Below are positions 10,701 to 37,780 of a stretch of 64,000 nt of DNA, piece by piece. A program made the translations under genes and the position numbers. Where the stretch lies: assembly GCF_003334355.1 (NCBI RefSeq), contig NZ_QOWP01000009.1. One strand, 5' to 3'. Under the pieces are notes generated by a model. It saw nothing but the letters and a program-made list of their open reading frames with translations, searched no databases and was not told where the DNA came from. Within the stretch, counting starts at the first letter, position 1. Each line of letters opens with the position of its first letter. The stretch is from Escherichia coli. GTDB taxonomy: Bacteria > Pseudomonadota > Gammaproteobacteria > Enterobacterales > Enterobacteriaceae.

Positions 10701-12899
10701 TTATCTCCTGCGCAACAATCTTAACGCATTCGCTGTCACCAGCACCGTCGCACCCGTATCTGCCAGCACCGCCAGCCATAGTCCGGTCATCCCTAAAAGC
10801 GTGGTGACGAGGAAGATCCCTTTCAGTCCCAGCGCAATGGTGATGTTCTGGCGGATATTGGCGTGAGTGGCGCGTGCCAGTTCAATCATTTGCACCAGGC
10901 CGCGCAGGTGGTTATGGGTTAATGCTGCATCAGCGGTTTCCAGCGCCACGTCTGTGCCACTGCCCATTGCAATCCCAATGGCGGCAGCTTTCATCGCTGG
11001 CGCGTCGTTAATACCGTCACCGACCATCGCCAGCGGCGCATGTTGATTCAGCTCGGTCACCGCTTTGACTTTATCTTCCGGCAACAGGCCCGCTTTAAAC
11101 TCCAGCCCCAGCTCCCCGGCAATTGCCGCCGCTGCGCGTGGATTATCGCCGGTGAGGATCACCCCTTTGACGCCCAGCGCGTTCAGTTCACTGATGGCAG
11201 TTGCAGCATCGGCGCGCAGGGTATCCTGTAACGCAATGACACCAAGCACGTCATCGTTACGTACTACCAGCACTACCGTTTGCCCGGCGCTTTCCAGTTC
11301 GTTAATTAAACCAGCAAATGCATCAGCGGGATGTTTCCCGGCAGCGCAAATCAATACGCGCTCACCGTTAACCTGCGCTTCAATGCCAGACCCGACCAGC
11401 GCCCGCTGTGATTCGGCGGCGGGAATGGCGAGTGCAGCAACCTGTGCTTCGCGCACGATCGCCTGCGCCAGTGGATGCGTCGCGCCTTGCTCGACCGCCG
11501 CCGCCAGTGTCAGCAGTTCAGATTCACTAATACCCGTTGCCGGATGAATCGCGGTAACGCGCGGTTTACCGACGGTCAGCGTACCGGTTTTATCAAACGC
11601 CACCTGGGTAACACGACCTAGCTGCTCCAGCGCCGCACCGCCTTTAATTAACGCCCCACGACGTGCCGCTGCTGCCAGCCCGGAGGTAATCGCCGCGGGC
11701 GTGGAGATAACTAACGCACACGGGCAGCCAATCAGCAGCAGCGTCAGCCCTTTATAAATCCACTCTTGCCAGCTGGCGGCAAACAGCAGCGGCGGCACCA
11801 GCGTTACCAGCAGGGCGACGGCCATAATTGCTGGCGTATAAATACGGCTGAAACGGTCGATAAACCGCTCAATGGGGGCGCGGCGCTCTTCGGCTTCTTC
11901 GATCAGTTTCAGAATCCGGTCAATGGCGCTGGCACCCGGTTCTGACAGCACTTCCAGCGTTACCAGACGGTCTACGCTGGTGGCTCCTGCAGGAACTTTA
12001 TCGCCCGTTGCGCGCTCCACCGGAATGGATTCGCCGGTCAGGGCGCTTTCATCAAAACTGGCAAAGGGCGAGAGCAGTTTACCGTCGGCAGGCAAACGCC
12101 CGCCCGCCGCAACTTCAATCACATCGCCAGGGCGCAGGCTGTTAATCGCCACCTCTTCCCGCTCACCGTTACGCAGGCGCGTGGCGGTTTCTGGTTTCAG
12201 CGCCATTAACGCGCTAACGCCCTGACGCGCGCGGCTGGCGGCCCAGCCTTCCAGTCGTTCACCAATCAAAAACAGCAGCAACACCATCGCAGCTTCAGCC
12301 GTTGCGCCAATAAACAGCGCACCAATAGCAGCTACGCTCATTAACGTTTCAATGGCGAAGTAACTGCCTGATTTGATCAGCCGTAATGCCTGACGAGCAA
12401 TCGGGTACAGCCCAACCAGCGTGGTCGCGATAAACGCCAGTTGCCCGAACGGATGATTGAACTGCTCCAGACCCCAGCTGATTGCCATCATCACGATTAG
12501 CGTAATCAGCGGCAGATTCTCTTTCAGGCGCGATGCTTGTGGCTCGTCGGCGGCCTGCTCATCACGCAGGGAATAGCCCGCTTTTTGCACCGCAGATTCA
12601 ACTTGTGCACGGATGTCATTGTCGGCATCAACCACCAGTTTTTCGGTGGCGAACAGTACCTGCACCTGATTCACGCCTGCAAGCTGGCGCACGGCATTTT
12701 CTACCTTGCGCGCACAGGCGGCGCAGTCCATGCCGCTGACTTTCCAGCTATAGCGGGTGCCGGAGACGTTTTCAGAGAGCGTTGGCGTGCTGGAACATGC
12801 GCCGTCGCAGCAACAGTCGTTGGCGTTCTGTACCGTGGTTAGCGGTTTGAACGCGGCAAATTGAGGGGCTTTCTTGCCGTGATTGTCAGGAGTCGACAT
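10701..12899 (-). CDS. zntA: Zn/Cd/Pb-exporting P-type ATPase ZntA
   Basis: 732 aa ORF with N-terminal metal-binding GMDCAAC motif, CPC transmembrane motif, DKTGTLT phosphorylation site and GDGINDAPA hinge motif. Confidence 0.95.
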   Translation of the reverse strand: MSTPDNHGKKAPQFAAFKPLTTVQNANDCCCDGACSSTPTLSENVSGTRYSWKVSGMDCAACARKVENAVRQLAGVNQVQVLFATEKLVVDADNDIRAQVESAVQKAGYSLRDEQAADEPQASRLKENLPLITLIVMMAISWGLEQFNHPFGQLAFIATTLVGLYPIARQALRLIKSGSYFAIETLMSVAAIGALFIGATAEAAMVLLLFLIGERLEGWAASRARQGVSALMALKPETATRLRNGEREEVAINSLRPGDVIEVAAGGRLPADGKLLSPFASFDESALTGESIPVERATGDKVPAGATSVDRLVTLEVLSEPGASAIDRILKLIEEAEERRAPIERFIDRFSRIYTPAIMAVALLVTLVPPLLFAASWQEWIYKGLTLLLIGCPCALVISTPAAITSGLAAAARRGALIKGGAALEQLGRVTQVAFDKTGTLTVGKPRVTAIHPATGISESELLTLAAAVEQGATHPLAQAIVREAQVAALAIPAAESQRALVGSGIEAQVNGERVLICAAGKHPADAFAGLINELESAGQTVVLVVRNDDVLGVIALQDTLRADAATAISELNALGVKGVILTGDNPRAAAAIAGELGLEFKAGLLPEDKVKAVTELNQHAPLAMVGDGINDAPAMKAAAIGIAMGSGTDVALETADAALTHNHLRGLVQMIELARATHANIRQNITIALGLKGIFLVTTLLGMTGLWLAVLADTGATVLVTANALRLLRRR

Positions 12900-12941
12900 G
12901 GCATCCTCCGGTTAAGTTTTTTCTCATTAACCGAAGGATAC

Positions 12942-12963
12942 ACTCTGGAGTCGACTCCAGAGT
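12942..12963. promoter_or_regulatory. ZntR (MerR-family) operator in the zntA promoter spacer
   Basis: Perfect 22-bp palindrome ACTCTGGAGTCGACTCCAGAGT, 43-64 bp upstream of the zntA start; on the coding strand it sits between TTGACT and TATCCT hexamers with a long spacer, the MerR-type promoter architecture. Confidence 0.8.
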
Positions 12964-12972
12964 CAAGTTTTA

Positions 12973-13599
12973 TCAGAGATACAGCGAGCGGACGATGAGG
13001 AAGTGACCGGCAAAGTAGCAGGCCGCAGCAATCGCGTTATCCGCACGGAAGCGTCGGCGATAGTGGCTACCCAGCCAGACAAAGTTACTGATAAACAGCA
13101 ACGAAGCGCCGACAAACGCAGAGAGCGCCGGAGCGGTCGGACGGAAGAACCACAGTTCACCTACCAGCCACACCATCACCAGCGTCATGCCGATAAACGT
13201 GCAGATAGGCCAACGATACTCTTCCAGCCGCGTCCAGATAATCGCCAGTAACAGCGCGCCCAGAACCAGCAGTACCAACGGCAGAGGCCAGAAGAAAGAG
13301 AGCGTCATCTGACTGGCGAAATAGATGGTGTACAGCAGGTGCGAGAGGAAAAACGCGCCGATGGCGTACATCAGACGTTGACGTGGCAACAGGGTTAGCG
13401 CATCGCCCAGCAGTGAGGCGCACAGCCCCGCCAGCACCAGATAGCTAATGGCGTCAAACATCGGCGCTTGCCAGGCCAGTAACAACAGGAGAAGAAGGGT
13501 TAACGGTTTAAACACCCAGCGTTGCCAGGTTGGCCCACGATACGATGCATCCACAGATAGCCATGCGGAAAGACAGACAGCGATAAACGACCAAAGCAT
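12973..13599 (-). CDS. yhhN: YhhN-family membrane protein (lysoplasmalogenase-like)
   Basis: 208 aa polytopic membrane ORF; position upstream of zntA. Confidence 0.85.
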
Positions 13600-37569: not shown

Positions 37570-37660
37570 GCGATCAGGAAGACCCTCGCGGAGAACCTGA
37601 AAGCACGACATTGCTCACATTGCTTCCAGTATTACTTAGCCAGCCGGGTGCTGGCTTTTT
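37570..37660 (+). ncRNA. ryhB: Iron-responsive small RNA RyhB
   Basis: GCGATCAGGAAGACCCTCGCGGAGAACCTGAAAGCACGACATTGCTCACATTGCTTCCAGTATTACTTAGCCAGCCGGGTGCTGGCTTTTTTTTT matches the RyhB sequence as I recall it; ends in hairpin GCCAGC-CGGGT-GCTGGC plus a T9 tract; lies between yhhY and yhhX. Confidence 0.9.
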
Positions 37661-37780
37661 TTTTGATCTTTCGTTCTCAATTTATCCACGGGAGTGCTTG
37701 TGTTCGTTATGCGCACTCCAGTAGGAACCACGTCCGCTTTGCGCTAAGGTGTAAATAACCACCTTAAAAAGGACGAAATC

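Follow-up and report, generated by a model that had tools for sequence, protein, structure and literature searches.

The yhhN-zntA intergenic region

The stretch of Escherichia coli DNA analysed here (64 kb, hereafter the window) carries the gene order ftsYE-rsmD-yhhL-yhhM-yhhN-zntA-tusA-yhhQ-dcrB, as in K-12 MG1655. The 73-bp intergenic region between yhhN and zntA is taken up entirely by the zntA promoter (PzntA) and leader, and the TGA stop codon of yhhN lies 6 nt from the -35 hexamer, a gap into which a terminator before PzntA cannot fit. This tight spacing recurs in 18 orthologous loci, where 8-16 bp separate the last yhhN sense codon from the -35, the corresponding distance in Photorhabdus being 189 bp. 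The features of the region are as follows.

12973..13599, minus strand: yhhN, an ORF of 208 aa with its TGA stop at 12975..12973
12966..12961, minus strand: -35 hexamer TTGACT, 5/6 against TTGACA, its last 3 bp (ACT) forming the first 3 bp of the palindrome
12942..12963, read on the plus strand, palindromic: ZntR operator ACTCTGGAGTCGACTCCAGAGT, arms of 11+11 nt, centre at 12952/12953
12960..12941, minus strand: spacer CTGGAGTCGACTCCAGAGTG, 20 bp
12940..12935, minus strand: -10 hexamer TATCCT, 4/6 against TATAAT, the matches including A2 and T6
12940..12902, minus strand: inverted repeat or RNA hairpin UAUCCUUCGGUUAA-(11 nt)-UUAACCGGAGGAUG with a 14-bp stem
12927..12928, minus strand: putative transcription start (an A), placed 7-8 nt past the -10 by the usual -10 to +1 distance
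12909..12905, minus strand: Shine-Dalgarno GGAGG of zntA, assigned by sequence and kept in Enterobacteriaceae orthologues
12899..12897, minus strand: zntA ATG, assigned by sequence
10701..12899, minus strand: zntA, Zn(II)/Cd(II)/Pb(II)-exporting P-type ATPase, 732 aa, assigned by NCBIfam NF033775 and RefSeq

The initial annotation of this DNA had assigned the promoter to zntA, and this assignment is borne out by the gene downstream. The 732-aa ORF passes the NCBIfam ZntA model NF033775 over its full length (1-732) with 1450 bits against a cut-off of 1240, and RefSeq annotates it as zntA. The promoter is the same element as PzntA of E. coli K-12, with which it shares the yhhN-zntA-tusA flanks, the 22-mer, the 20-bp spacer, and the TTGACT hexamer; between the -35 and the ATG it agrees with MG1655 at every base, and the single base difference upstream falls within the coding sequence of yhhN. 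A query of 501 bp spanning the site matched all 5426 of 5426 complete E. coli genomes between the annotated yhhN and zntA genes. The regulator gene zntR was not found in the 64-kb window (best tblastn E = 0.2); in K-12 it is located ~167 kb from zntA. As zntR was found in 5426/5426 complete E. coli genomes and passes the NCBIfam ZntR models, it is very likely present in this genome as well. The sole Rfam match in the window at the gathering threshold is the iron-responsive small RNA RyhB at 37599..37663 on the plus strand (83 bits), ~25 kb from zntA and in agreement with the K-12 map.

The minus-strand sequence of the region is TGA TAAAAC TTGACT CTGGAGTCGACTCCAGAGTG TATCCT TCGGTTAATGAGAAAAAACTTAACC GGAGG ATGCC ATG. 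A perfect 22-bp palindrome had been described between two promoter hexamers on the zntA strand, with an over-long spacer. The palindrome is as described, its 11-nt arms being 100% complementary and gapless, and recognisable sigma-70 hexamers (a near-consensus TTGACT and a moderate TATCCT) do lie on the zntA strand, but the palindrome is not strictly between them since it overlaps the -35 by 3 bp. Its other edge stops 1 bp short of the -10 hexamer, and its centre is displaced 2 bp toward the -35 from the spacer midpoint. The spacer does prove over-long, with a counted length of exactly 20 bp. The optimal sigma-70 spacer is 17 bp; at 20 bp the hexamers are too far apart and rotationally out of phase, so the bare promoter should be weak. 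A sigma-70 scan using 16-18-bp spacers called no promoter at PzntA, as expected from the over-long spacer. The -10 is 36 nt from the zntA ATG on the same strand, and with a start ~7 nt past the -10, near 12928, the zntA leader would be ~29 nt long with a free Shine-Dalgarno. The TSS supplement of PMC3415461 holds no entry for zntA / b3469.

Chance expectation, conservation, and environmental occurrence

The operator is the longest perfect palindrome of the 64-kb window, the runners-up being four of 14 bp, and a 22-bp palindrome was reached in 1 of 100 dinucleotide-preserving shuffles. No second match to ACTCTGGAGTCGACTCCAGAGT with up to 3 mismatches was found elsewhere in the window, and the shuffles expect none. 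Hexamer pairs with a 19-20-bp spacer are present at chance level, with 17 in the window against 15.4 in shuffles. Of these 17, PzntA alone encloses a dyad whose arms reach 7 bp or more, an arrangement that appeared in 0/30 shuffles. A chance palindrome was ruled out by the palindrome-length shuffles together with the joint hexamer/dyad shuffles.

Positions 12900..12980 (81 bp) show 100% identity in 5368 of 5426 E. coli genomes, while the surrounding 501 bp are at least 99% identical in just 732, and the 32-bp core from -35 to -10 is matched in 5414/5426 complete genomes. These identity counts indicate that PzntA is under purifying selection in E. coli. The sole promoter variant inspected, from E. 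coli N96, has five instead of six A in the A-run of the leader; the change corresponds to 12916..12922 of the window, in the hairpin loop, and the run of E. fergusonii is equally short.

Orthologues were collected in two ways. A search for ZntA protein relatives returned only sequences of at least 87% identity (Escherichia, Citrobacter, and Salmonella), which added three loci and little diversity. A ZntA scan of genome contigs gave mostly distant P-type ATPases among the matches listed, with at least five gammaproteobacterial orthologues. Palindrome matches near the distant P-type ATPases were set aside as noise, as they carried 7-10 mismatches, or in one case 6 and a position far downstream of the gene. 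The initial annotation had held that absence of the palindrome from orthologues would count against its reading; the palindrome was present in the orthologues examined. The operator and 20-bp spacer are identical in E. fergusonii, Salmonella, Citrobacter amalonaticus, C. werkmanii, and Enterobacter sp. Bisph1, and also in 12 metagenomic Enterobacteriaceae-type loci among the matches listed, where the ATPases downstream have 57-79% identity to E. coli ZntA. More distant operators vary in sequence and keep the 20-bp spacer: Photorhabdus has altered half-sites (ACTCTGGAG-TAGG-CTCCAAAGT), Vibrio shows a symmetric change in both half-sites (ACCTTGGAG-TAGG-CTCCAAGGT), and a gammaproteobacterial MAG has a variant dyadic operator. 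Overall, the 20-bp spacer is kept in 21 of the 21 orthologous loci examined. The -35 TTGACT is invariant in all Enterobacteriaceae orthologues examined, and the -10 occurs at the same distance as TATCCT, TATGCT, CATACT, TAGAGT, TACACT, or TAAACT.

Metagenomes were scanned with the pattern TTGAC-NN-TGGAG-N5-TCCA-NN-GT-NN-A-NNN-T-V, which gave at least 120 matches, with 80 loci among the matches listed. The ZntR-type design of an operator within a 20-bp spacer is common in soil and other metagenomes. At the positions left free by the pattern, the 67 distinct environmental sites listed were complementary in 46/67, 47/67, and 33/67 cases against 32, 31, and 17 expected; the free positions thus covary as a dyad in these sites. 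A P-type ATPase gene lies directly downstream on the promoter strand in 15 of the 80 loci among the matches listed (16 hits, one on the opposite strand), and in ~26 of these 80 the first ORF is a MerR-family regulator gene. No more than ~30 nt, and mostly 10 nt or less, separates the start codons of the latter from the -10; such proximity suggests that these regulator genes may be leaderless and autoregulated. Other first ORFs encode a small HMA-domain protein, a Cys-rich metallochaperone of the CopZ-N-terminal type, and two protein groups without a family match.

Activation by ZntR and competing explanations

The exact 22-mer is published as the ZntR consensus site, inside a 20-bp spacer (PMC1526738), and the operator in the window agrees with this consensus at 22/22 positions. 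The PzntA -35 is given as TTGACT and its spacer as 20 bp, against 19 bp for other MerR promoters (PMC3431237), and Enterobacter sp. YSU carries an identical operator and a 20-bp spacer (PMC7911910). One 2022 paper gives the PzntA spacer as 19 bp (PMC9189660), against the 20 bp of these three sources; the shorter value was rejected here, as it needs GTATCC as the -10, a hexamer that has neither the conserved A2 nor the T6. In the literature searched, no paper puts the PzntA promoter elements elsewhere. According to PMC4507017, no ZntR operator other than PzntA is known in E. coli. For the K-12 promoter and operator, the primary reports are Brocklehurst et al. 1999 and Outten et al. 1999, as cited in PMC1526738, PMC3431237, and PMC2611976.

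We therefore identify the element, whose anatomy, non-randomness, identity with the published element, and conservation are direct observations, as PzntA, the sigma-70 promoter of the zntA efflux ATPase gene with its ZntR operator, at a probability of about 0.96. ZntR binding, repression by the apo form, and metal-bound activation by DNA distortion are taken from the literature, largely through secondary accounts. We found nothing that contradicts this identification.

In the published mechanism, a homodimer of ZntR, a MerR-family zinc sensor, would place each of its DNA-binding domains on one half-site. With apo-ZntR bound, the promoter would be held in an unfavourable shape and be mildly repressed in vivo. 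ZntR carrying Zn(II), Cd(II), or Pb(II) would kink and underwind the DNA at the dyad centre, so that the spacer is effectively shortened and re-phased, polymerase contacts both hexamers, and zntA transcription rises about tenfold.

Activation by ZntR through DNA distortion had been proposed for this site in the initial annotation, and the sequence anatomy and secondary citations both support it. Three later papers outline the mechanism of Outten et al. 1999 (PMC2611976, PMC9909328, and PMC9189660). In these accounts, apo-ZntR binds and distorts the DNA and Zn-ZntR alters its conformation to make a good polymerase substrate (PMC2611976, PMC9909328), and transcription in vitro goes up with Zn-ZntR (PMC2611976). 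In vivo, zinc turns ZntR from a mild repressor, acting up to ~2-fold at low zinc, into an activator with ~10-fold induction (PMC9189660). In a zntR knockout constitutive expression is very low, and zinc with ZntR brings it ~10-fold above the knockout level (PMC9189660). The same study found ZntR to be purely repressive once its site was moved downstream of the promoter or put in a stronger promoter. According to PMC3431237, DNase I protection by ZntR spans the -35, the spacer, and the -10, which agrees with the placement of the elements here on the footprint comparison that had been suggested. In Vibrio parahaemolyticus, replacing the equivalent inverted repeat abolished ZntR- and metal-dependent induction (PMC10936601).

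A very improbable alternative is that the palindrome acts mainly at the RNA level, either as a 3' stem-loop of yhhN (a terminator or stabiliser) or as a terminator of plus-strand antisense transcripts. With the yhhN stop 6 nt from the -35, every yhhN transcript must enter the palindrome, and as RNA the palindrome is predicted to form a 9-bp stem of -14.9 kcal/mol (z -2.8). On the yhhN/zntA strand, however, the stem is followed by GUGUAUCCUUCGG and no U-run, so this is not a canonical intrinsic terminator, and termination as the primary function was rejected for that strand. The plus strand at 12942..12973 does have a T-rich CAAGTTTTAT after the stem, and a pattern scan calls it terminator-like, but no plus-strand gene ends here and the upstream plus strand is antisense to zntA. 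Such a site would stop transcripts antisense to zntA. An RNA role also gives no account of the fixed 20-bp register with the hexamers, which holds in the orthologues and in the 67 listed environmental sites, nor of the ZntR binding and ZntR-dependent activation reported at the operator. The RNA stem of the palindrome is at most a secondary by-product of the dyad.

The remaining alternative, a simple repressor operator at which a dimer occludes RNA polymerase and metal merely releases it, fits a dyad that covers the -35 and fills the spacer, as well as the low-zinc repression and the purely repressive relocated site cited above, but it is scarcely credible: release alone would be insufficient for strong expression from a promoter made intrinsically weak by its 20-bp spacer, expression is very low in the zntR knockout and ~10-fold higher with zinc and ZntR, Zn-ZntR raises transcription in vitro, and simple repression has no need of a strictly conserved over-long spacer.

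Activation of PzntA by ZntR-induced distortion has close counterparts. The founding member of the MerR-type promoters is PmerT, controlled by MerR. Like PzntA, PmerT of Tn501 and Tn21 has a dyad in an over-long spacer and a TTGACT -35, and MerR, like ZntR, represses in the metal-free state and activates when metal is bound, by underwinding DNA (PMC3431237, PMC7911910, PMC9909328). PmerT differs in its 19-bp spacer, its 7-4-7 dyad of other sequence, and its metal, Hg(II), and merR is adjacent and divergently transcribed, in contrast to the distant zntR. PcopA and PcueO of E. coli, controlled by CueR, resemble PzntA in having a chromosomal MerR-family metal sensor, a P-type ATPase gene, and a spacer dyad, but their spacers are 19 bp and their half-site sequence is different; CueR senses +1 ions, with Ser77 at the position of ZntR Cys79. 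The CadR and PbrR promoters of Pseudomonas and Cupriavidus share with PzntA the sensing of divalent metals, the TTGACT -35, and the spacer dyad, and differ in their 19-bp spacers and half-sites (PMC1526738, PMC3431237). Crystal and cryo-EM structures of CueR with DNA and with polymerase show kinked DNA (PMC9909328). The PDB contains no ZntR-DNA complex, its ZntR entry covering residues 43-141 only (1Q08), and the closest solved relatives of ZntR are CadR and PbrR (CadR E = 1e-24, PDB search). The kink at PzntA is thus extrapolated from CueR, CadR, and other relatives.

A predicted hairpin joining the -10 and the Shine-Dalgarno

The inverted repeat downstream of the operator pairs two functional elements of zntA expression. 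Its 5' arm (12940..12927) comprises the -10 hexamer and the discriminator, and its 3' arm (12915..12902) covers the zntA Shine-Dalgarno. The predicted fold has -17.6 kcal/mol (z -5.6, reached by 0/200 shuffles), whereas the leader beginning at the predicted +1 is unstructured (-5.3 kcal/mol, z 0.1). In 17/17 Enterobacteriaceae-type orthologues the Shine-Dalgarno is predicted to be mostly or wholly paired, in the long form only, with folds of -12 to -24 kcal/mol and z of -1.9 to -9. The arms are conserved across orthologues, and the loop varies in both sequence and length. Two pairs of the stem show compensatory changes, the covariation term of RNAalifold is 0, and about half of the orthologues have a mispair at one position of the stem. 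Both arms are also independently constrained, one by promoter function and the other by ribosome binding.

With the putative ZntR-dependent start at ~12928 lying inside the 5' arm, the hairpin would form only in transcripts begun upstream of PzntA, that is, in yhhN read-through. Transcripts from PzntA would lack the hairpin and be translatable; in putative read-through transcripts it would be present and keep zntA untranslated. Transcriptomics in Yersinia pestis treats yhhN-zntA as one co-expressed unit (PMC2231364). One possible though doubtful function, based on this modelled folding, is that of a built-in insulator that would tie synthesis of the pump to ZntR-activated initiation and not to upstream transcription. 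We found no published description of the -10/Shine-Dalgarno hairpin in the literature searched.

A second repeat was observed where translation of zntA begins. Part of the operator, its centre plus right half (12944..12955, GTCGACTCC-A-GA), is directly repeated at 12886..12897 on the minus strand, where the copy reads ATG-TCGACTCC-T-GA and matches the operator half at 11/12 positions. Several Klebsiella- and Enterobacter-like metagenomic orthologues have a repeat of 12-13 nt (GTCGACTCCAGA, extending to GTCGACTCCAGAG in locus L139), and in Salmonella and Citrobacter the repeat is broken by synonymous changes. Judged from its sequence, the start-codon copy could be a spare ZntR half-site or a relic of duplication, or it could offer the left arm of the operator an alternative pairing partner in read-through RNA.

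PzntA with its ZntR operator is an already known, textbook element. It is one of the reference cases for two phenomena, transcription activation through distorted DNA and the sensing of zinc at femtomolar levels, and heavy-metal biosensors make wide use of it. The present work is a re-identification of this classic model system, and its confirmation adds no biology; the initial annotation had recognised a MerR-type promoter from the raw sequence alone. As a side result from the metagenomes, what follows the design among the loci listed is mostly a MerR-family regulator gene or a gene for a small metal-binding protein rather than an ATPase gene. The hairpin is the one possibly new thing here and, if its proposed role is true, translation of zntA would be insulated from yhhN read-through.
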